A stretch of 64,000 bases of DNA from Blastocatellia bacterium (GCA_036277095.1 DASUNP010000067.1:67551-131550); one strand, 5' to 3'. Counted from the first letter of the stretch, positions 50,681 through 62,721 are shown. The notes: generated by a model from the sequence alone, not told the origin. Translations and numbers: made by a program.

Positions 50681-53600
50681 TTAATCGGCGGTCGCTTCTG
50701 CAAGCTCTTGCGGGCCTACGCTAAAATAAGCAGCGTCGGGGTGATGAAATACCAGCGCCGAGACCGAAGCTTCCGGCTCCATCATGAAGCCTTCCGTAAG
50801 CTCTATTCCAATCTCTTCGGGCCGCAGCAGGCGGAACAACCCCGCCTGTGATTCCAAATCCGGGCAAGCCGGATAGCCGAATGAATACCGCTTGCCGCGA
50901 TAACGCGCTTGAAAGATGGCTTGCCGCGACAGCCCTTCGGGGTCCGCAAATCCCCACATCGCGCGCAATCGCGCGTGCAGCCATTCGGCCGCCGCCTCTG
51001 CCGTTTCGAGCGCCAACGCCTGTAGCGCGTAAGACCTCAGATACTCGCCCTGCTGCTTTGCGGCTTCGGCAAGCTCGCGTATCCCTTCGCCCGCGGTCGT
51101 GGTAAACAGGGCTATGTGATCGCGGCCAGGATCAGGCGGCAAGACGAGATCGCTTAACGCCACGCCGTCGTCTTTCCGCTGGCGAGGGAAGACGAATGTC
51201 TCGGCTGGCTCTGTCGCGCCGCGCCCCGCGAAAACGTGCAGGCGGTTGCCTTCGGATTCGGCTTCGAAGAATTGCCAGACGACGCGGACGCTCATGGCCC
51301 CACGGCGACACTCTTCTTTCACACGCTCGATCTTCTCTTCGAGATCGCGCGCGCGGCGGTCGCCTGCCGCGATCAAATCGTTAAACCGCCCGCGCAACCC
51401 GAGGTGGCGGCCATAAAGCATCTGCGGGTTGATGTAGCTCCAGACTTCATCCAGATCCCTGACCTGTTCGACGTGACGCGAAAGGTCCGTCACAGGCGGT
51501 ATCGGAACGTCGAGAGAGATCTTTGTGCTGCGGCGGTCGGTTTCGGCCGCTACGACTTGCACTGTTTGCGCCGTCGCCCCCAGGTCTTTATCGAGCAATT
51601 CGGCTTCGAGCCGCGCGCGCTGGTCTGGGTCCATCAAGCGATTCAGAATATCGAGCCCGTGCATTGCGTCGTTCGCATAGACGACGGTGTTGCTGTAGGC
51701 GGGCGCGATCTTTGTGCGCGTGAAACGATCGGACAACGCCGCCCCGCCTACGAGCAGCGGGAGCCCTACGCCTGCGTCTTTCAAATCGCTTGCGGTTATG
51801 ACCATCTGCTGGGCCGATTTGACGAGCAGGCCGGAAAGCCCTATCGCGTCGGGGCTGTGCTCTCGCACGGCCTGTATCAAGACTTCGGGCGGGACCTTGA
51901 TGCCGAGGTTTATCACCTCGTAGCCGTTGTTCGACATAATGATGTCGACGAGGTTTTTGCCTATGTCGTGTACGTCGCCTTTAACGGTCGCAAGTATTAT
52001 TCGCCCGCGAAGGCTCGTGGCGCTCTTCTCCATGAACTGTTCAAGGTGAGAGACGGCCGTCTTCATCGCTTCGGCTGATTGTAGGACTTCGGCGACGATC
52101 AACTCGTTGTTGTTGAAGAGGCGACCGACTTCTCCCATCCCCGTCATCAGCGGCCCGTTGATGATGTCGAGCGGCGCGGCTTCTTTCAGCTTCAAGTCGA
52201 GGTCCGCGATCAAGCCTTCTTTTGTGCCCTCGATGATGTAGGCGGCCAGCCGCTCGTCGAGCGGAAGATCGGCTGTCGTCTTTTTGACGCGCGAAGTCGC
52301 GGCGCGAAAGTGAGCCGCGAACCGGGCTATCGGATCATCCCCGCGATTCCACAACAGGTCTTCGGCAAGCCGCCGCTCTTCGTCCGGTATCGAAGCGTAG
52401 CGTTCGAGCTTTTCTGAATTGACTATCGCAAGGTCGAGCCCGGCTTTTGTGCAATGATAAAGAAAGACGGAGTTCAACACCTCGCGGCCCGCGTCGGGCA
52501 GGCCGAACGACACGTTGCTTATGCCGAGAACGGTTTTGACATGAGGTATCTCTTGCTTGATGAGCCGCACGCCCTCAATGGTCTCGACCGCGCTCCCGAT
52601 ATAATTCTGATCCCCGGTTGCGCAGGGGAAGACCAGCGGGTCAAAGATAATGTCTTCCGCGCGTATGCCGTAGTCTTCGGTGAGCAATTTGCAAGAGCGG
52701 CGGGCTATCTCAAGCTTTCGCTCGCGCGTTATGGCCTGCGCCTGCTCTTTGTCTTCGTCGATGCAGCCGACGATCAGGGCCGCGCCGTATTTGCGCGCGA
52801 GCGGGGTGACGAGCTCGAACTTTTCAAGCCCGTCTTCGAGGTTGATAGAGTTGATGATCGATTTGCCCTGACAGTAGGTGAGCGACCGCTCGATCGCAAC
52901 AGAGTCTGTGGTGTCTATCATGATCGGCACTTTTACGAGCCGTATCATGCGGTCGTAAAAACGGTCTATGTCATACAGTTCGTCGCGGTCGGCGTTCTGG
53001 AGATTGACGTCGCAAATCTGCGCGCCACCTTTGACTTGCTGGCGCGCTATCTCGGCGGCCTCTTCGTATTTCTCTTCGGTGATGAGTCGCTTGAACTTGC
53101 GCGAGCCTACTTCGTTGGTCCGCTCGCCCACGATCAACGGGCGCTGGTCGTCGGATGCTTCGACAAAGTCTATGCCTGAGAAGAGGGTCCGGTGATGCTT
53201 CCGGTAAACGCGCGGGCGCTTGCCCTCGACCATCTGGGCGAGTTGGCGTATGTGCGCTGCGGTAGTCCCGCAACAGCCGCCAACAAGATTTATCCAGCCG
53301 TGATCTACGAACCGCTCAAGCGTTGAGGCCAGGCTTTCGGGAGTTTCAAGATAGATGCCGTCTTCGTTCGGCAGCCCCGCGTTCGGTATGCAAGAGACGC
53401 GCGTTTCGGCCTGCGCGGCTATCGATCGGATGTGATCGGTCATGAACTCAGGCCCCGTAGCGCAGTTCAGACCAACCGAAAGCAGGTCGGCGTGCATCAG
53501 CGAAGTGACGAAAGCTTCCGCGGTCTGGCCCGCCAGCATCGTGCCCGTCGCTTCGATCGTGCCGGAAACCATTATCGGCACTCTCACTCCCAGTTCATCA

Positions 53601-54157
53601 AACACGCGCCATATTCCGATGAGCGCCGCCTTCACGTTGCGCGTGTCCTGCTGCGTCTCGACTATCAGAAGGTCTGCGCCGCCCGCGACGAGCCCGGCAG
53701 CCTGATCGTGGAAAGCGTCTACGAGTTGCTCGAACGTGACGCCGCCCGTCACCGATATAGCTTTTGTAGTAGGCCCCATCGAGCCTGCGACGAATCGCGG
53801 GCGGGCTGGTGAAGATAATTCTTTGGCGGCTTGCCGGGCCAGCCGCGCCGCAATTTCATTCTGTTCGCGCGCGCGGTCTTCGAGGCCGTATTCGGCCAGC
53901 ACTATCCCGGTGCTGCCGAACGTATTTGTCTCGATGATGTCTGCGCCCGCGTTGAGGTAGCCGCGATGTATATCGAGCACGACGTCGGGCCGCGTAAAGA
54001 CCAGGTTCTCGTTGCAGCCTTCCAGATGCGGGCCGCCAAAATCCTCCGCCTGCAGATTGCGCTCTTGAATCGCGGTGCCCGTCGCGCCGTCGAGCACGAG
54101 AATGCGCTCGGCCAGCAACTCTTTCAGCATCTGTGTGCGATGTTGTCTGTCTTCCAT
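50681..54157 (-). CDS. metH: cobalamin-dependent methionine synthase
   Basis: 1158 aa; Hcy-binding (ILVLDGATGTAIQ), pterin-binding, B12-binding and AdoMet-reactivation regions. Confidence 0.9.
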   Translation of the reverse strand: MEDRQHRTQMLKELLAERILVLDGATGTAIQERNLQAEDFGGPHLEGCNENLVFTRPDVVLDIHRGYLNAGADIIETNTFGSTGIVLAEYGLEDRAREQNEIAARLARQAAKELSSPARPRFVAGSMGPTTKAISVTGGVTFEQLVDAFHDQAAGLVAGGADLLIVETQQDTRNVKAALIGIWRVFDELGVRVPIMVSGTIEATGTMLAGQTAEAFVTSLMHADLLSVGLNCATGPEFMTDHIRSIAAQAETRVSCIPNAGLPNEDGIYLETPESLASTLERFVDHGWINLVGGCCGTTAAHIRQLAQMVEGKRPRVYRKHHRTLFSGIDFVEASDDQRPLIVGERTNEVGSRKFKRLITEEKYEEAAEIARQQVKGGAQICDVNLQNADRDELYDIDRFYDRMIRLVKVPIMIDTTDSVAIERSLTYCQGKSIINSINLEDGLEKFELVTPLARKYGAALIVGCIDEDKEQAQAITRERKLEIARRSCKLLTEDYGIRAEDIIFDPLVFPCATGDQNYIGSAVETIEGVRLIKQEIPHVKTVLGISNVSFGLPDAGREVLNSVFLYHCTKAGLDLAIVNSEKLERYASIPDEERRLAEDLLWNRGDDPIARFAAHFRAATSRVKKTTADLPLDERLAAYIIEGTKEGLIADLDLKLKEAAPLDIINGPLMTGMGEVGRLFNNNELIVAEVLQSAEAMKTAVSHLEQFMEKSATSLRGRIILATVKGDVHDIGKNLVDIIMSNNGYEVINLGIKVPPEVLIQAVREHSPDAIGLSGLLVKSAQQMVITASDLKDAGVGLPLLVGGAALSDRFTRTKIAPAYSNTVVYANDAMHGLDILNRLMDPDQRARLEAELLDKDLGATAQTVQVVAAETDRRSTKISLDVPIPPVTDLSRHVEQVRDLDEVWSYINPQMLYGRHLGLRGRFNDLIAAGDRRARDLEEKIERVKEECRRGAMSVRVVWQFFEAESEGNRLHVFAGRGATEPAETFVFPRQRKDDGVALSDLVLPPDPGRDHIALFTTTAGEGIRELAEAAKQQGEYLRSYALQALALETAEAAAEWLHARLRAMWGFADPEGLSRQAIFQARYRGKRYSFGYPACPDLESQAGLFRLLRPEEIGIELTEGFMMEPEASVSALVFHHPDAAYFSVGPQELAEATAD

Positions 54158-55560: not shown

Positions 55561-57390
55561 TCATAAAACACTGAAAACGTCGAGCGCGTATTGCACCTTG
55601 CCGAATGGCGCGGAGACTTGAACGCCCTGCACAACGTCCATAACGTCGAGCAGGGTTTCGCGCGCGATCGCGAGGCCTTCTTCGCGCGCGGCGTCTTTAT
55701 CCGTGATGCCGTGCATGCGCTCAAGCACCGAGTCGGGCACGACCACGCCGGGCACTTCGTTAGCCAAAAACTCCGCATTGCGGTAGCTCACAAGCGGCCA
55801 GATGCCCGCGATCACAGGGATGCAGCAATGCTCTATGCGCTTTAGAAAACTTCTTAGCTGCTTTACGTCGAAAGTCGGTTGCGTGATGGCGAACTCTGCC
55901 CCGGCTTCCACCTTCCACTCGAACCGCCGCAGCTCATAATCTAAATCTACGGCGCAAGGATTGACTCCGACGCCCATGTAAAAAGATGTCGGGCCGCCGA
56001 TGGGGTTCCCGCCAATGTCGAGCCCGTGGTTGAGCCGGTTGACCATGTTGACGAGCCCTATCGAGTCTATGTCAAAGACGGCAGTCGCTTCGGGGTACGG
56101 CCCCATCTTGGGCGGGTCGCCTGTGATGATCAGCAAATTGCGCAACCCCATAGCGGCCGCGCCCAACAGATCGCTCGTCATCCCTAACAGGTTTCGGTCG
56201 CGGCAGCAGTAATGCACGACCGCCTCTATCCCTACTTGCTGCTCGATCAACGTAGAGACGGCCAGCACACCCATTCGCGATTGCGCGCGCGGGCCGTCGG
56301 GGACATTGACCGCGTCGACGCCCGATTCTTTAAGCAGCCTTACGCCTTCGAGCATCTTTGACGGGTCGCACCCTTTGGGCGGGACTATCTCGACGGAAGT
56401 GACGAACTCGCCCGCCGAAATCTTTCGAGCGAACCTACTCTTCTCTTCGCGCGGAGTGACGGCGATATTTGCGGGCGTCTCTTCGGGCACAAAGACGCGC
56501 ACGCTTGAGCGGCCCGGCGAGAGCGCCGCCACGGCGTTTGCGATCTGCTTTATGTGATCGGGCGTCGTCCCGCAACAGCCGCCCACGAACTTTGCGCCGG
56601 ATTGTATGAGGCGTTTGGCGTACTTCGCCATGTATTCGGGCGAAGCCATGTAAAACATCCGCCCATCGACTTGTCGCGGCAGCCCGTTGTTGGGCTGCGT
56701 CGAGAGCTTGCGCCGCGTGACCTGATGCATCTTCTCGATCGCTTCGAGCATGGCGTGCGGCCCCACGGAGCAGTTGAGCCCGATCACGTCCGCGCCCCAC
56801 TCGTCTAACCTCTTTGTGAAAATCTCGGGCGAAGTGCCGTAGCTCGTCGAGCCGTCATTTTGTATGGTCATCTGCGCTACAATCGGCAGGTCGCAGACGG
56901 AGCGGACGGCCAGGATTGCCTGATGAATCTCCGCCACGTCGGAAAATGTTTCGAGGATGAACAGATCCACGCCGCCTTCAAGCAACGCCTCGGCCTGCTC
57001 GCGAAATATGGCCTGGGCCTCTTCGCTCGACGTAGGCCCGTAAGGCTCTATGCGAATGCCGAGCGGCCCGATGGCTCCCGCGACGAACGCGCGCCCGCAC
57101 GCGGCTTCATTTGCGAGCCGTGCGCCCGCGTTGTTGATCTGATAAATCCTGTCTTCCAGCCCGTAGCCGGTCAGCTTCGCGCGGTTAGCGCCGTAGGTGT
57201 TCGTCTCGACAATGTCCGCGCCCGCCTTAACATAATCGCGGTGGACGTTCAAAACCAGATCGGAGCTTGTCAAATTCAGCTCGTCGTAACATCGATTGAT
57301 GTAGACGCCGCGCGAATAGAGCATCGTGCCCATCGCGCCGTCGAAGACGTAGACTCGATCATCCGTGACAGCGTCTCGAAAATCTTTCAT
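55561..57390 (-). CDS. metF: bifunctional homocysteine S-methyltransferase / 5,10-methylenetetrahydrofolate reductase
   Basis: 609 aa; N-terminal Hcy-binding domain (VFDGAMGTMLY ... GGCCGT), C-terminal MTHFR domain. Confidence 0.85.
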   Translation of the reverse strand: MKDFRDAVTDDRVYVFDGAMGTMLYSRGVYINRCYDELNLTSSDLVLNVHRDYVKAGADIVETNTYGANRAKLTGYGLEDRIYQINNAGARLANEAACGRAFVAGAIGPLGIRIEPYGPTSSEEAQAIFREQAEALLEGGVDLFILETFSDVAEIHQAILAVRSVCDLPIVAQMTIQNDGSTSYGTSPEIFTKRLDEWGADVIGLNCSVGPHAMLEAIEKMHQVTRRKLSTQPNNGLPRQVDGRMFYMASPEYMAKYAKRLIQSGAKFVGGCCGTTPDHIKQIANAVAALSPGRSSVRVFVPEETPANIAVTPREEKSRFARKISAGEFVTSVEIVPPKGCDPSKMLEGVRLLKESGVDAVNVPDGPRAQSRMGVLAVSTLIEQQVGIEAVVHYCCRDRNLLGMTSDLLGAAAMGLRNLLIITGDPPKMGPYPEATAVFDIDSIGLVNMVNRLNHGLDIGGNPIGGPTSFYMGVGVNPCAVDLDYELRRFEWKVEAGAEFAITQPTFDVKQLRSFLKRIEHCCIPVIAGIWPLVSYRNAEFLANEVPGVVVPDSVLERMHGITDKDAAREEGLAIARETLLDVMDVVQGVQVSAPFGKVQYALDVFSVL

Positions 57391-57423
57391 TCCTAAGTCC
57401 CACTCAAAAAACGTCTCGCTATA

Positions 57424-57513
57424 AAAAGCAAAAGCCCCGCGCTAAACTGCGCGGGGGCCGATTCCGGGCTGTTTAGCAGTTTTTTACGTGGAGCAATTAC
57501 CATAAATCGCCAC
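57424..57513 (-). promoter_or_regulatory. conserved leader element copy A (candidate SAM-responsive riboswitch/attenuator) ending in an intrinsic terminator directly upstream of the metF-fusion start
   Basis: RNA sense: GUGGCGAUUUAUGGUAAUUGCUCCACGUAAAAAACUGCUAAAC...GCCCCCGCGCAGUUUAGCGCGGGGCUUUUGCUUUUU, then 43 nt, then AUG. Two more copies lie upstream of the thrC-like gene. Confidence 0.6.
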
Positions 57514-57574
57514 ATTAAATTTTCAACGCTGCAAGGATACACCCTGGCAACGCTCAAGTCAATCATGACGGTCG

Positions 57575-58954
57575 TTAATCGAACACCGCAGGGTCGGCTT
57601 CCTTGAAGAACCGATCGTGCAGCGCGCGGACCACATTCTCAACCTCGCTTTCGTCTATGACGAAGGTAAGGTTTATCTCGCTCGCGCCCTGGCTGATCAT
57701 GTTGACGTTGGTCGTTTCGATCGCGCGAAACAGTTGCGCGGCGACGGCCGGCTTGAATTTCAGGTTGTCGCCGATGACGCAGACGATCGCTTTGCCCGTC
57801 TCTACGGAAACCTGCGCGATGGCTTCGAGGTCACGCTTGATCACTGCAAGGCGGTCCGTGCTGTCGAGCGTCATCGAGACCGAAACTTCGGACGTGGTGA
57901 CCACGTCGACGGAAGTCTGGTGCTGGTCGAAGACCTCGAATATCTTGCGCAAGAATCCGTACGCCATCAGCATCCTCGTCGATGTGACGTTGACTATAGT
58001 CACGCCGCGCTTGAAGGCGATCGATTTTATGAGGTTGCTCGAAGGGCGCGGCTCGCGGATGATCAACGTTCCCTCACAGGACGGATTGCGCGTGTTGTAG
58101 ATGTGCACGGGTATTCCCCGCTCGACGGCGGGCATCACAGTGCTCGGGTGCAGCACCTTCGCGCCGAAGTATGAAAGCTCCGCCGCCTCCGCGAAAGAGA
58201 GCACGCGGATGCGCCTCGCCCGCGAGACGACGCGCGGGTCCGCCGTCATAAGGCCGTCAACGTCCGTCCAAATTTCTATCGCTTCCGCGCTGAGAGATGC
58301 GCCTATTATCGCGGCGGAATAATCCGACCCGCCGCGCCCGATCGTCGTGGTCACGCCTTCCGCAGTCGAGCCGATGAAGCCTTGCGCTACAGGCACAACC
58401 TGCCGCCCTATCAAGGGCAGCAGCGCCGCGCGCGCGCGCGTTTCGGTCTCTCGCATGTTGGGCGCGGCCACAGTGAAGTGATCGTCCGTGACGATGAAGC
58501 GGCGCGAGTCGACAAGCTCTGCCCGCGCGCCGCGCGAATGGAGCGCGGCGGTCACAATCAGCGAGGAGAGTCGCTCGCCGAACGAGACGATCGCGTCCTG
58601 GCTGCGCGGGGAAAGCTCGCCGAGCGTAGCGACCGAGCGGGCCAGGCTTTCAAGCTCGGCGAAATTATCTTCGATGGCGCGCCTCACCTCATCAATCAAA
58701 TGATGATCGGACGGGAGCAGGTCGCGCGACGTGGCGAGGTGTCGTTCGCGCAACTCGTCAATAATGGCCCCGGCTTCATCGAAACGCCTATCCTTTGCCG
58801 ACTCGGCCAGCCGCAGCAGCGCATCTGTGACGCGCGCCATCGCCGACACGATCACCACGGGCGAGCTAGCCATGCGGCTGCGGACGATCTCGACTGCTTG
58901 ATTTATCGCGGCTGCGTCCCCAACCGACGTGCCGCCGAATTTCATCACGATCAT
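57575..58954 (-). CDS. lysC: aspartate kinase
   Basis: 459 aa; MIVMKFGGTSVGDAAAI N-terminus; C-terminal ACT domains. Confidence 0.9.
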   Translation of the reverse strand: MIVMKFGGTSVGDAAAINQAVEIVRSRMASSPVVIVSAMARVTDALLRLAESAKDRRFDEAGAIIDELRERHLATSRDLLPSDHHLIDEVRRAIEDNFAELESLARSVATLGELSPRSQDAIVSFGERLSSLIVTAALHSRGARAELVDSRRFIVTDDHFTVAAPNMRETETRARAALLPLIGRQVVPVAQGFIGSTAEGVTTTIGRGGSDYSAAIIGASLSAEAIEIWTDVDGLMTADPRVVSRARRIRVLSFAEAAELSYFGAKVLHPSTVMPAVERGIPVHIYNTRNPSCEGTLIIREPRPSSNLIKSIAFKRGVTIVNVTSTRMLMAYGFLRKIFEVFDQHQTSVDVVTTSEVSVSMTLDSTDRLAVIKRDLEAIAQVSVETGKAIVCVIGDNLKFKPAVAAQLFRAIETTNVNMISQGASEINLTFVIDESEVENVVRALHDRFFKEADPAVFD

Positions 58955-58966
58955 AAGTAATCCACT

Positions 58967-59734
58967 TCATCCGCACATCACGGAGCCGCCGTTGACGTTT
59001 ATGACTTCGCCCGTGATGTGCCGCGCCAGGTCCGACGCGAGAAAGAGGATCGGGCCTGCGACATCATCCGCGCAAGCCACGCGGCCAAGCGGAATGCCGC
59101 GATTGATCTTCTCAAGCTCCGGCGGGTCGCGCAAAGGTTCGGCAGACATGTCAGTATCGACCCAGCCCGGCGCAACGGAGTTAACCGTTATACCATAAGA
59201 ACCGAGCTCAGCGGCCAGGGATTTAGTAAAAGAGATTATGCCGCCCTTCGAAGCAGCGTAATGCGAATGAAAAGCCTCGCCGCGCTGGCCCGCAGTCGAC
59301 GACAGCGTGACGATACGGCCCGACCGCTGATGCTTCATTATCTTTGCCGCAAAGTGGCAGCAGAGAAAAACGCCTTTCAGGTTCACGTCAATCGTCTCTT
59401 GCCAGCTCTGCTCGTCGAGACGGTCGACCGCCGCGCCGGTCCACACGCCAGCGTTTGCGATTACGATGTCTAAGCGGTCGAACTCCGCCAGCGCCTGCTC
59501 GAACATCGTGCGGACATCGTCTGCGCGCGAGATATCTGCCCGCACAGCGATGGCGCGCGCTCGAAACGAGCGCGCGCTGGCCGTGACGCGGGCGGCTTCG
59601 GCCTCGTGGTTGAAATAGTTTACTACCAGCGAGGCCCCGGCTTCGGCAAGCCTTAGAGCCGTCGCCGCGCCGATGCCGCGCGAAGCGCCTGTGACGAGCG
59701 CAACTTTACCATTCAGATCTATCATGTTCCCCTC
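58967..59734 (-). CDS. SDR-family oxidoreductase (FabG-like); start trimmed to MIDLNGK after a GGGAGG RBS (the track gives 59782)
   Basis: KVALVTGASRGIGAATALRLA Rossmann motif; YxxxK. Confidence 0.75.
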   Translation of the reverse strand, partial: EGNMIDLNGKVALVTGASRGIGAATALRLAEAGASLVVNYFNHEAEAARVTASARSFRARAIAVRADISRADDVRTMFEQALAEFDRLDIVIANAGVWTGAAVDRLDEQSWQETIDVNLKGVFLCCHFAAKIMKHQRSGRIVTLSSTAGQRGEAFHSHYAASKGGIISFTKSLAAELGSYGITVNSVAPGWVDTDMSAEPLRDPPELEKINRGIPLGRVACADDVAGPILFLASDLARHITGEVINVNGGSVMCG

Positions 59735-59783
59735 CCATAAACTAAGCTGTCGCGTGGAAGTGGCTCCGGGAGCCATTTTCACG

Positions 59784-60059
59784 TCATCCGCCTGCGATTG
59801 CCGGGACTATAGATACTTCCGCGCCATCCGTCACCTGCGTCGACAGGTTATCGAGAAAGCGCACGTCTTCGCCGTCGACATAGATGTTGATGAAGCGGCG
59901 CAACCCGCCGCCCTCTTCGCACAATCGTGAGCGAAAGCCCGGGAAACGTTTGTCGAGCCGGTCGATCAATTCATCTACAGAAGAGGCTTCGACCTCTACT
60001 GTATCAACGTCTCCAGTGAGCCGGCGAAATGGTGTTGGTATGCTTACAGTAAGTGACAT
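59784..60059 (-). CDS. MoaD/ThiS-family sulfur-carrier protein
   Basis: 91 aa ending in ...VPAIAGG (C-terminal Gly-Gly); immediately downstream of the ThrC-like gene. Confidence 0.75.
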
Positions 60060-60086
60060 AATCTTTCCTCCCTCGTGTGAGTCTTC

Positions 60087-61325
60087 TTAAGCCGTAGCCG
60101 CAAAGCCCGTTAACGCTTTCTCGAACTGTGCGACTCGCGGCTCGATGACTATGGGCTGCTCGCTTTTGGCGGCCTCCTGCGTCTTGAGGCCATTGCCCGT
60201 GATCGCGATGACCGTCAGATCATCGGGGCTAATGCGGCCCTGCTCGATCAGCTTTTTGGTCACGGCGACGGTGACGCCGCCGGCAGTTTCGGTAAAGACA
60301 CCTTCCGTCTCTGCCAGCAGCCGTATGCCGTCGACGATCTCGGTATCCGTTGCATCTTCGGCCCAGCCTCCGGTTTCGGCGATAACGCGAGCCGCTTGAT
60401 AACCGTCGGCAGGGTTGCCGATGGCGAGCGACCGAGCGATGGTCGCGGGCTTGACTGGCCGAATTTCTGTCGAGTTCCGTTTCACGGCTTCAACTATGGG
60501 ATTGCACCCGGCGGCTTGTGCTCCGAAGATTCGCGTCGAGGCTTCGCCTTCCAGCAACGAGAGGCGCTCGAACTCCTTCAAGCCCTTGTAAACCTTTGTG
60601 ATGAGCGAGCCGCCGGCCATCGGCGCAATGACGGCTGTGGGAGCGCGCCAGCCGAGACTTTCTGCTATCTCATAACCGACGGTCTTCGACCCTTCGCCAT
60701 AAAAAGGTCTGAGATTAACATTCACAAATCCCCACGGGTGACGGTCGGCTATCTCGACGCACAGCCGGTTCACGTCGTCGTAGTTGCCGCGCAAGGCGAT
60801 CACCCGCGCGCCATAAATAGCGGTCGCGGTGATCTTGGCCGGTTCGAGGTCTTCGGGAATCAGTATGTAGGCGGGCAATCCTGCGGCTGCTGCGTTAGCG
60901 GCGACAGAGTTCGCGAGGTTTCCAGTCGATGCGCAGCCGACGGCTCGGAGACGGAACTCAAGCGCCTTGTTGATGGCGACCGCCGCGACGCGGTCTTTGA
61001 ACGACAGCGTCGGCGAGTTGACGCTGTCGTTTTTTATATAGAGGTTTGAAACGCCGAGCCTTGAAGCCAATCGGTCCGCGCGAATGAGCGGTGTCGCGCC
61101 GCTGGTTCGACCGACGACAGGCTCGCGGTCGAGCGGCAACAGCTCGCGGTATCGCCATAAACTCTTTTCACGTGATTCGATCTTGCGGCGCGAAAGCGAG
61201 CGCCGAATCGCGTCGTAATCGTAATCGACCTCAAGCGGGGCGAAGCAGTCTTCGCACCCGGCCACGAGCCGCTTTTCGTAAGCGCGGCCACACTCTGTGC
61301 AACGAAGTCCTTTCACAAAACTCAT
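60087..61325 (-). CDS. threonine-synthase-like PLP enzyme (MetM-like; sulfur-carrier-dependent homocysteine synthase candidate)
   Basis: 412 aa; N-terminal Cys4 zinc-ribbon (CTECG...CEDC), PLP lysine region SFKDR; paired with a MoaD-like gene and preceded by tandem met-type leaders. Confidence 0.65.
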   Translation of the reverse strand: MSFVKGLRCTECGRAYEKRLVAGCEDCFAPLEVDYDYDAIRRSLSRRKIESREKSLWRYRELLPLDREPVVGRTSGATPLIRADRLASRLGVSNLYIKNDSVNSPTLSFKDRVAAVAINKALEFRLRAVGCASTGNLANSVAANAAAAGLPAYILIPEDLEPAKITATAIYGARVIALRGNYDDVNRLCVEIADRHPWGFVNVNLRPFYGEGSKTVGYEIAESLGWRAPTAVIAPMAGGSLITKVYKGLKEFERLSLLEGEASTRIFGAQAAGCNPIVEAVKRNSTEIRPVKPATIARSLAIGNPADGYQAARVIAETGGWAEDATDTEIVDGIRLLAETEGVFTETAGGVTVAVTKKLIEQGRISPDDLTVIAITGNGLKTQEAAKSEQPIVIEPRVAQFEKALTGFAATA

Positions 61326-61343
61326 AGCTTTACCTCCTTAAAA

Positions 61344-61436
61344 ACGAAAAGCCCCGCGCCAAACTAGCGCGGGGCCTGATGCCTTCGGGGCCGTTTAGCA
61401 GTTTTTTACGTGGAGCAAGTCGCCTTAAATCGCCAC
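61344..61436 (-). promoter_or_regulatory. conserved leader element copy B (proximal) with terminator + AAGGAGG RBS before the thrC-like start
   Basis: RNA sense: ...UUGCUCCACGUAAAAAACUGCUAAACGG...GCCCCGCGCUAGUUUGGCGCGGGGCUUUUCGUUUUUAAGGAGGUAAAGCUAUG. Confidence 0.6.
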
Positions 61437-61463
61437 GCGCGTCGAATTGTTAAAGACCAAATG

Positions 61464-61555
61464 AAAACGCCCCGCGCTAAACCAGCGCAGGGCGTCAAAA
61501 CTCCTCAGCGGTTTAGCACATGTTTTACGTGGAGCAATTTGCTTTAAATCACCAC
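61464..61555 (-). promoter_or_regulatory. conserved leader element copy C (distal, tandem to copy B)
   Basis: RNA sense: GUGGUGAUUUAAAGCAAAUUGCUCCACGUAAAACAUGUGCUAAACCGC...GCCCUGCGCUGGUUUAGCGCGGGGCGUUUUC. Confidence 0.55.
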
Positions 61556-61860
61556 GATCAGTTTCAGAAACCGCAGAGTACACCCGCGCGGCCCGTGAAG
61601 TCAAGGAGATTCATCAGAACTTTTATTCCGCGTAGATCGTTTGCCACAGCACTTGACGCAGAGCGCGGCGAGTGCTATATCTCAATTTGCTTAAGGTTCT
61701 GTTAAAGGCTTATGACCCGAATGACGAACTCAATCTGTTGCATCTGTTGTTGCGCGCCAGCGGCGCGCCGGGCAAAGCCTTTAGTGGAGATTTATATCCG
61801 TAGAACCTGAATCTGATTTTTAGATAAGAGTTTTCATTAAACCCACTATCGGCGACGCCG

Positions 61861-62721
61861 GTGGTGGGTTTTTCGTTTTTGGTCGCTCTTTTATCGGCTA
61901 TGAGATTGATGGCGAGAAAACTTGGGAAGGTCTACCTGATAGGCGCGGGGCCGGGCGACCCGCTTCTTCTCACGCTCAAGGCGGCCAAGGCCATAGCGAC
62001 GAGCGACGTGATCGTTTACGACTACCTTGTAAACCCCGAAATCCTGGCCCACGCGCGGCGAGGAGCAGAATTGATCTACGTCGGCAAACGCGCGGGCGAG
62101 CAATCTATCTCACAATCGGAGATCAACCGCATTCTGATCGAGCGCGCAAATCGAGGCGAGATGGTCGCGCGCGTGAAGGGCGGCGACCCGTTCATCTTCG
62201 GTCGCGGCGGCGAAGAAGCCGAAGCCCTCGCAGAGGCAAACATCAAATGGGAAGTCATACCGGGCGTGTCGTCAGGCGTGGCCGCCGCTGCATACGCAGG
62301 GATTCCGCTGACGCATCGCGGCTACGCTTCGAGCGTCGCTTTCATCACGGGCCACGAAAGCAGCAAAGCCGGGGGCGGGCTCGACTGGTCCGCGCTCGCG
62401 CACTCTGCCGATACGCTCGTGGTCTTTATGTGCGCGGAGACGATAACCACCATCGCCGGACACCTCATCCGGGCGGGGCGCGCGCCTTCGACCCCTGTCG
62501 CGATCATTCGATGGGGCACCTACGAATCATGCCAGGAAGTTTACTCAACCTCGCTCGATGCGCTCGCGCGCACGGACGAGCAGACAGGCGAAGAGGCGCG
62601 GATCAAGATTGAGCCGCCCGCCATCGCAATCATCGGCAGCGTTGTCTCTCTCAAAGAAAAGCTCCACTGGTTTGGCCGGCCCGCAATCGATATAGAGCAG
62701 GGCGAACCTGTCGGAGTGTAG
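61861..62721 (+). CDS. cobA: uroporphyrinogen-III C-methyltransferase (siroheme branch)
   Basis: LGKVYLIGAGPGDPLLLTLKA and VKGGDPFIFGRGGEE SUMT motifs. The true start is probably an internal Met (MRLMARK...). Confidence 0.85.
   Translation: MVGFSFLVALLSAMRLMARKLGKVYLIGAGPGDPLLLTLKAAKAIATSDVIVYDYLVNPEILAHARRGAELIYVGKRAGEQSISQSEINRILIERANRGEMVARVKGGDPFIFGRGGEEAEALAEANIKWEVIPGVSSGVAAAAYAGIPLTHRGYASSVAFITGHESSKAGGGLDWSALAHSADTLVVFMCAETITTIAGHLIRAGRAPSTPVAIIRWGTYESCQEVYSTSLDALARTDEQTGEEARIKIEPPAIAIIGSVVSLKEKLHWFGRPAIDIEQGEPVGV

Follow-up and report, generated by a model that had tools for sequence, protein, structure and literature searches.

We identified three leaders of ~100 nt on the minus strand of a 64,000-nt stretch of DNA from a Blastocatellia bacterium (GCA_036277095.1 DASUNP010000067.1:67551-131550; hereafter the window, with positions counted from its first letter), each ending in a strong intrinsic terminator. 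Each leader is very probably a complete riboswitch of the S-adenosylmethionine (SAM)-II class, an aptamer joined to an intrinsic terminator, that turns off the transcription of methionine biosynthesis genes. One leader, copy A, lies 5′ of an open reading frame (ORF) of 609 aa, and the other two, copies C and B, stand head to tail 5′ of an ORF of 412 aa (Table 1); the genes within 55.5–61.6 kb are all on the minus strand. The original prediction, made from the sequence of the window, had proposed a leader in three copies upstream of methionine genes as a candidate SAM riboswitch. Minus-strand reading, alignment, and covariance-model search agree with it on the copies and their locations.

The three copies have a mean column identity of 75% and share one order of blocks: CGUGG(C/U)-GAUUUA, a short variable stretch, UUGCUCCACGUAAAA, 3–5 nt, and (U)GCUAAAC, followed by a variable linker of 12–17 nt, a G+C-rich hairpin of 9–14 bp, and a U-run. 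This is the arrangement that had been predicted, beginning with GUGG-N-GAUUUA, except in the wording of copy C: its block reads CAUGUGCUAAAC rather than CUGCUAAAC, and its terminator, although present, has a 5′ arm corrected to GCCCUGCGC, with one G-U pair. An independent scan called a terminator at every copy. A covariance model built from relatives of the leaders (see below) matched the window at exactly these three places, with 63.6–76.1 bits (E 4e-13 to 5e-16), and its next-best match scored 10 bits. No further copy was found in the 64 kb by mismatch pattern or by unfiltered covariance-model search. In the alignments of both the copies and the relatives, the aptamer rather than the hairpin is the most conserved part of the leader. 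It is predicted to fold as an H-type pseudoknot, with a 5-bp P1 (CGUGG/CCACG), a U-rich L1 (GAUUUA), a 3-bp P2a, and a P2b in which (C/A)UUGC of the P1 loop would pair with the 3′ tail GCUAAAN.

We compared the leaders with the riboswitch families in Rfam. All three align full-length to the SAM-II model RF00521 (model positions 1–79). At each copy this model scores highest among the families, and no other family matches all three. Every upper-case consensus block of RF00521 (GAUUU, CUUGC, CCACGU-AAA, and GCUAAA) is matched in A, B, and C, and the conserved core blocks are invariant in the three-copy and relatives’ alignments. The models for SAM-V (RF01826), SAM-I (RF00162), SAM-VI (RF02885), and SAM/S-adenosylhomocysteine (SAM/SAH; RF01727) gave no match at the three sites at E ≤10 and none in eight related loci at E ≤1. 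RF01726 (SAM-II long-loop) reached only 17.5 bits at copy A, and the only SAH match (RF01057, 17.5 bits) falls within the aspartokinase ORF on the other strand. Across the eight related loci, which are diverse, RF00521 was the only family to match these elements (22.9–37 bits), and one acidobacterial copy (L005 7598-7670, 37.0 bits) exceeded the gathering cut-off of 36 bits, which is a curators’ cut-off and not a structural feature.

Relatives with a longer P1 link the window leaders to the canonical family. All 17 that we tested passed the Rfam thresholds, 16 as RF00521 at 36.2–74.8 bits and one as RF01726, and some of them are short-loop forms with little beyond a single added nucleotide 5′ of the P1 3′ strand to set them apart from the window type. 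In the other direction, a covariance model of the variant detected canonical examples at 28–52 bits (E 7e-10 to 2e-4). We assign the leaders to SAM-II because scores are continuous through intermediates that differ by one nucleotide, because detection works both ways, and because the core matches. Judged by sequence comparison, the window leaders form the low-scoring end of a SAM-II continuum, and we file them there on architecture, core sequence, and context. The original prediction had stated that the sequence is not SAM-I, in agreement with the lack of any SAM-I match in the window; where it had offered a SAM-II/V/VI-type aptamer or a new methionine-leader class, SAM-II was retained, and SAM-V, SAM-VI, and the new class were not.

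The variant is widespread in Acidobacteriota. A genome-collection scan with a pattern derived from the copies gave at least 120 loci, and a metagenome scan in which UUGC and CCAC were separated by two nucleotides rather than one gave 120 more; counts on relatives rest on the matches listed. Among those of the first scan, nearly all loci come from metagenome-assembled genomes (MAGs) of Acidobacteriota (Blastocatellia, Pyrinomonadaceae, Terriglobia, and Acidoferrales), and our literature searches on SAM-II in Acidobacteria found no paper addressing the subject. Over 5.6 kb, the window shares 85% identity with a locus of a Blastocatellia MAG (L004) in which the same three leaders are present. When the SAM-II pairing scheme of 11 pairs was applied to 105 distinct aptamers, 93.6% of cells were paired, compared with 23–55% for slid partners. 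P2a covaried, with two-sided changes at all three of its pairs (GC/GU/AU/UG, GC/GU/AU/UA, and CG/UG/UA), and within the window the A-U pair in P2a of copy C, compared with G-C in A and B, is a compensatory change. Covariation analysis of homologous leaders, which had been suggested along with the prediction, thus bears out the P2a pairing.

The genes next to the leaders belong largely to methionine metabolism. For 89 relatives we took the first long same-strand ORF 3′ of the leader as the downstream gene and scanned it against Pfam. ThrC-like pyridoxal 5′-phosphate (PLP) enzymes were the most frequent (51 of 89), followed by PLP enzymes of Cys/Met metabolism (22) and fusions of homocysteine methyltransferase with methylenetetrahydrofolate reductase (MTHFR) (8), which together make 81; the remaining genes include a sulfite reductase, a MetX-like hydrolase, three peroxiredoxins, and two outer-membrane barrels. 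In the window itself, Pfam and NCBIfam matches confirmed the predicted identities of a metF fusion and a thrC-like/MoaD pair.

We next considered how the aptamer could control termination. A hairpin followed by a U-run is present in 112 of the 128 leaders of relatives. SAM-II aptamers with a terminator have been described as OFF switches (Corbino 2005, PMC1273637; Barrick 2007, PMC2258182), with a termination mechanism that was not established experimentally according to the latter. With SAM bound, the tail would be held in P2b, the G+C-rich hairpin would form, and RNA polymerase would terminate at the U-run. In the absence of SAM, the free tail would pair with a 7-nt element, N′UUURGC, which extends across the terminator loop into the first two nucleotides of the 3′ arm. 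The resulting helix would arise once the loop is transcribed and would delay hairpin closure, allowing read-through. On geometric grounds, the tail–loop helix and the terminator stem should exclude each other topologically and not coexist as a pseudoknot, as there is no linker between the loop element and the lower stem. The strand complementary to the loop is precisely the one that the pseudoknot takes up when ligand is bound. In the crystal structure of the bound aptamer, a tail U pairs with the SAM adenine, and the N′UUURGC–GCUAAAN pairing would be continuous and include that U.

Complementarity between GCUAAAC and the terminator, already noted in the original prediction, is present in all three copies: GUUUAGC in A, GUUUGGC with one G-U pair in B, and GGUUUAGC with 8 bp in C; Table 1 lists the predicted duplex energies. 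Among the relatives, UUURGC (the complement of GCUAAA with G-U allowed) occurs in 87 of 124 platforms, where 7.2 were expected and the shuffle maximum was 15, and it is located at the hairpin apex. The duplex of tail and apex has a mean of −13.5 kcal/mol compared with −5.5 kcal/mol for shuffled apexes. The tail varies only at position 7, and in 82 of 90 cases this nucleotide pairs with the one 5′ of UUURGC (permutation mean 47, maximum 62), as G-C in 45, C-G in 25, G-U in 10, A-U in 1, and U-A in 1. In co-transcriptional folds of A, B, and C, the tail–loop helix is the minimum free energy structure until ~7 nt of the 3′ arm are out, after which the terminator takes its place. The antiterminator that had been proposed thus gains comparative support from the enrichment and from one covarying position in ~90 relatives. 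We see an even chance that the leaders represent a distinct platform in which the apical loop of the terminator repeats the P2b 5′ strand in gap-filled, ligand-independent form and the free tail blocks closure topologically, not by competition for a stem arm; such control would be purely kinetic, and the antiterminator would be much weaker than the terminator.

We also considered whether tail–loop complementarity is general to SAM-II and rejected this: UUURGC was found in only 15 of 105 canonical SAM-II platforms (14%), barely over the shuffled level, compared with ~70% of variant platforms. In this sequence survey, the tail–loop design is characteristic of the variant.

Several results weigh against reading the leaders as SAM-II switches with a tail–loop antiterminator. 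At gathering thresholds, Rfam has no match anywhere in the window, and in permissive mode, where RF00521 appears at all three copies, the scores of 22.3–27.5 bits (Table 1) stay below the cut-off; these values are explained by the absence of the sixth P1 pair, by a P2a of just 3 bp, and by flanks that do not match. P1 is 99.6% paired but invariant, and its lack of covariation is uninformative because both collection patterns fixed CCAC. The third P2b pair, which is C-G in 57 of the 105 relatives and a non-pair in 47, is A·C in copies A and C and C·C in B. Support for the antiterminator comes from a single covarying position in sequences that are related, so that independent changes are far fewer than 82. 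Tail positions 8–11 paired no better than permuted controls in the relatives; the helix is therefore 7 bp, and the 10-bp antiterminator suggested by copy A finds no support. The loop complement is absent from 31 of 112 terminator-bearing relatives (~28%). Finally, in A, B, and C every full-length fold in which the antiterminator is forced to form is 4–11 kcal/mol less stable than the terminator, and in these models the RNA would at equilibrium terminate with or without SAM. A switch whose terminator is thermodynamically favored has to work kinetically, and the folding snapshots together with geometric reasoning on helix incompatibility suggest a kinetic antiterminator. This dominance of the terminator goes beyond the original prediction, as does the fact that the terminator platform and the tandem arrangement have already been described for SAM-II.

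The stability of the terminator in all three copies, the single covarying position, and the relatives that lack the complement would also be expected if a SAM-II-like aptamer and a real terminator were present but the tail–loop complementarity were not a working antiterminator. Control would then run through another pairing, such as one of the 5′ arm with the linker or with the 3′ strand of P2a, through Rho or RNase effects, or through constitutive termination that yields a small RNA; SAM-II leaders of S. meliloti do give stable small RNAs and affect mRNA stability (PMC9373788). We consider this unlikely, given that UUURGC is enriched twelve-fold over shuffles in the hairpin apex, that all four Watson–Crick combinations and G-U occur at the tail-7/loop pair, and that the complement matches exactly the pseudoknot-sequestered strand. 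The largest group without the complement (mostly Pyrinomonadaceae MAGs; L002, L012, L030, L037, L040, L114, L117, and others) has the same aptamer and the loop ACUCUGAG; in this group, CUUUGG in an extra linker hairpin may substitute as antiterminator.

The remaining alternatives concern the identity of the element. Small changes have altered ligand specificity in other riboswitch classes, and the shortened acidobacterial variant, without the sixth P1 pair, with just 3 bp in P2a, and with scores under the Rfam cut-off, could have a SAM-II fold that recognizes SAH, methionine, or another adenosyl-sulfur compound. This is very improbable in our view: none of the conserved core blocks of RF00521 is altered, the SAH and SAM/SAH models have no match at these sites, and the regulated genes make homocysteine and methionine, a regulon that fits SAM feedback and not SAH recycling. 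The lack of matches at gathering thresholds would agree with a novel type of methionine leader or riboswitch, unrelated to SAM-II and similar to it by chance, but we rejected this as extremely unlikely because the copies align to RF00521 over its full length and share its core motifs exactly, scores form a continuum from 22 to 75 bits via single-nucleotide intermediates, detection works in both directions, and P2a covaries in the register predicted for SAM-II. Three similar copies that each carry a strong hairpin might also be a generic repeated terminator or a repetitive extragenic palindrome-like element with no sensing, for which the original prediction had named scatter at the 3′ ends of unrelated genes as the sign. 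We found only three copies in the 64 kb, each 5′ of a same-strand methionine-pathway gene, and 81 of 89 downstream genes of the ThrC-like, Cys/Met-PLP, or MetF-fusion type; conservation, moreover, peaks in the aptamer and not in the hairpin. Copy number, gene context, and aptamer conservation all contradict a generic element, to which we give next to no probability. We therefore retain the SAM-II riboswitch reading.

Copies C and B are each a complete aptamer with its own terminator, in series 5′ of one ORF, and they are presumably co-transcribed. A weak promoter-like site lies 5′ of the pair (Table 1), the promoter scan showed none between C and B, and a Shine–Dalgarno sequence (AAGGAGG) and the AUG at 61325 directly follow the terminator of B. 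SAM-II elements usually have a promoter a few nucleotides 5′ of P1 (Corbino 2005, PMC1273637), and leader A, too, is preceded by a promoter-like site. On one transcript, read-through past C and B would require both to be unliganded, which could give a tighter and steeper, “pseudo-cooperative” response. Among the matches listed, 17 of 120 related loci have tandem pairs, which are kept in L004, L013, L056, L093, and others. A published survey describes 44 tandem SAM-II pairs, some with a terminator after each aptamer, and reads them as pseudo-cooperative (Sherlock 2022, PMC9481103). Our pair is alike in having two SAM-II units, each with a terminator stem, in series before one ORF, and we see no substantive difference. 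In an Ignavibacteriae MAG (L062 754-862 and 915-986), a SAM-I/IV aptamer (RF01725, 45.5 bits) and, immediately 3′ of it, a SAM-II-type aptamer (RF00521, 33 bits) precede a 448-aa ORF; of this order, the same survey reports only two examples (Sherlock 2022, PMC9481103).

Table 1. Coordinates of the leaders, their pairing elements and terminators, promoter-like sites, and regulated genes in the window
Feature	Position	Strand	Details
Copy A, leader	57516-57423	-	5′ of the 609-aa ORF
Copy A, aptamer	57460..57516	-	relatives’ model 63.6 bits, E 4e-13; RF00521 22.8 bits, model positions 1-79
Copy A, P1	57514-57510 with 57491-57487	-	
Copy A, L1	57508-57503	-	GAUUUA
Copy A, P2a	57501-57499 with 57469-57467	-	GGU with GCC
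Copy A, P2b 5′ strand	57497-57493	-	AUUGC
Copy A, tail	57477-57471	-	GCUAAAC
Copy A, terminator	57423..57459	-	terminator scan; stem 57456-57435 (CCCCGCGC-AGUUUA-GCGCGGGG); U-run 57433-57423
Copy A, loop element	57447-57441	-	GUUUAGC, tail-complementary; duplex -11.9 kcal/mol
Copy C, leader (first in tandem)	61558-61459	-	5′ of copy B and the 412-aa ORF
Copy C, aptamer	61500..61558	-	relatives’ model 67.0 bits; RF00521 22.3 bits
Copy C, P1	61556-61552 with 61532-61528	-	
Copy C, L1	61550-61545	-	
Copy C, P2a	61543-61541 with 61509-61507	-	AGC with GCU
Copy C, P2b 5′ strand	61538-61534	-	AUUGC
Copy C, tail	61517-61511	-	GCUAAAC
Copy C, terminator	61459..61496	-	terminator scan; stem 61496-61466, then U-run
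Copy C, loop element	61483-61476	-	GGUUUAGC, complementary to tail GCUAAACC, 8 bp; duplex -19.0 kcal/mol
Copy B, leader (second in tandem)	61439-61341	-	5′ of the 412-aa ORF
Copy B, aptamer	61382..61439	-	relatives’ model 76.1 bits; RF00521 27.5 bits, E 0.0026
Copy B, P1	61437-61433 with 61413-61409	-	
Copy B, L1	61431-61426	-	
Copy B, P2a	61424-61422 with 61391-61389	-	GGC with GCC
Copy B, P2b 5′ strand	61419-61415	-	CUUGC
Copy B, tail	61399-61393	-	GCUAAAC
Copy B, terminator	61341..61377	-	terminator scan; stem 61377-61349; U-run to ~61341
Copy B, loop element	61364-61358	-	GUUUGGC, tail pairing with one G-U; duplex -12.2 kcal/mol
Promoter-like site, leader A	57534..57562	-	TTGACT-17-TATCCT; ~20 nt 5′ of P1; scan, 9/12 consensus matches; consensus match only
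Weak promoter-like site, tandem leader	61575..61604	-	TTGACT-18-TACTCT; by eye, not in scan list; -10 hexamer 3/6
Bifunctional homocysteine S-methyltransferase/MTHFR (under copy A)	55561..57390	-	609 aa, start at 57390; PF02574 and PF02219; NF006396 767 bits, cut-off 453
Operon under copies C and B	57575..61325	-	four genes
ThrC-like PLP enzyme	60087-61325	-	412 aa; TIGR00260 268 bits
ThiS/MoaD-like sulfur-carrier protein	59784-60059	-	91 aa; also SAMP1-like
SDR (short-chain dehydrogenase/reductase)	58967-59782	-	
Aspartokinase	57575-58954	-	

Two YbjN-like ORFs and then a full-length metH (50681-54157) follow the MTHFR fusion on the same strand. In the operon under copies C and B, the ThrC-like enzyme and the ThiS/MoaD-like protein are probably a homocysteine synthase of the thiocarboxylate-dependent MetM/MetO type, as gene order and SAM-riboswitch control suggest. 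MetM and MetO form a thiocarboxylate route from O-phosphohomoserine to homocysteine, and MetM is often misannotated as threonine synthase according to the GapMind authors (bioRxiv 10.1101/2024.10.14.618325). The name “threonine synthase” given by TIGR00260 to the ThrC-like enzyme is likely such a misannotation, and control by a SAM riboswitch offers independent evidence that such “threonine synthases” are homocysteine synthases of the MetM/MetO type. A few variant leaders, some in tandem, lie 5′ of other genes, namely AhpC/TSA peroxiredoxins (L016, L019, and L089) or TonB-type outer-membrane genes; in L006, the downstream gene encodes a 1094-aa outer-membrane barrel. In L007, L111, and L119, a Cys-rich leader peptide (…SCCCPLTCSCCCR) stands just 5′ of an ORF starting with MSIRIGD.

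Divergent from the tandem riboswitches, the region 61653-61885 on the plus strand looks like a cysteine leader-peptide attenuator (fold z = −4.7). It contains a promoter-like TTGACG-17-TATATC, a short ORF from 61712 (MTRMTNSICCICCCAPAARRAKPLVEIYIRRT) with 5 Cys in 7 codons, and a strong hairpin with a U-run at ~61840-61880, just 5′ of genes for a TP_methylase (CysG/CobA-like) and a 3′-phosphoadenosine 5′-phosphosulfate reductase (CysH). Cys-run peptides of a similar kind, with CCCACC...GGTGGG-UUUUU terminators after them, are present in L013, L056, L026, L031, L034, L048, L085, L099, L105, L108, and others. Antisense within the ThrC-like ORF, at 60960-61036 on the plus strand, a terminator-like hairpin with a U-run matches the Xoo2 small RNA at 26 bits (cut-off 45), most likely by chance. 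Other Rfam elements near acidobacterial SAM-II leaders are the nadA (NAD+) riboswitch, the Moco riboswitch, and group II introns (L087 900-995 and 2450-2588, L003 7620-7847, and L005 1652-3529).

The leaders are ordinary regulatory elements, an acidobacterial form of SAM-II that scores below the Rfam threshold. Standard Rfam annotation misses all three sites and most of the relatives that we checked, and methionine regulation is therefore under-annotated in Acidobacteriota, an abundant soil phylum; adding sequences shorter by 1 nt to the RF00521 seed would mend this. With the terminator platform and the tandems already published, the terminator-loop antiterminator is possibly the one new point, and the covariation of tail and terminator loop provides a concrete, testable model for SAM-II-driven termination.

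Compared with known systems, the leaders are closest to SAM-II itself (the metA motif, RF00521 SAM_alpha; PMC1273637), with which they share a single P1 hairpin and a pseudoknot P2, an identical core (GAUUU, (C)UUGC, CCACGU-AAA, and GCUAAA), a location 5′ of methionine-pathway genes, usually with a terminator next, and a predicted OFF function. They differ in lacking one nucleotide between UUGC and the P1 3′ strand, which leaves 5 rather than 6 pairs in P1, in a P2a of 3 bp and a shorter P1 loop of 18–19 nt, in their host, Acidobacteriota here as opposed to Proteobacteria or Bacteroidetes, and in the frequency of the terminator-loop complement given above. The metZ leader of S. meliloti (Scheuer 2022, PMC9373788) likewise has a predicted SAM-dependent termination at a Rho-independent terminator just past a SAM-II aptamer, but the metZ and metA aptamers are of the canonical long-P2a type, and for the metA terminator it was not possible to predict an antiterminator driven by SAM-II, whereas the tail–loop antiterminator here has comparative support. 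SAM-V (RF01826) and the SAM-II long-loop family (RF01726) are also small H-type pseudoknot aptamers for SAM with a related binding core; SAM-V differs in that it typically controls translation and not termination. SAM-I, which has no match in the window, has an unrelated aptamer fold, a four-way junction. In the S-box regulon of Firmicutes, it controls yitJ-type fusions of homocysteine methyltransferase with MTHFR, the same gene type under the same termination logic as at copy A.

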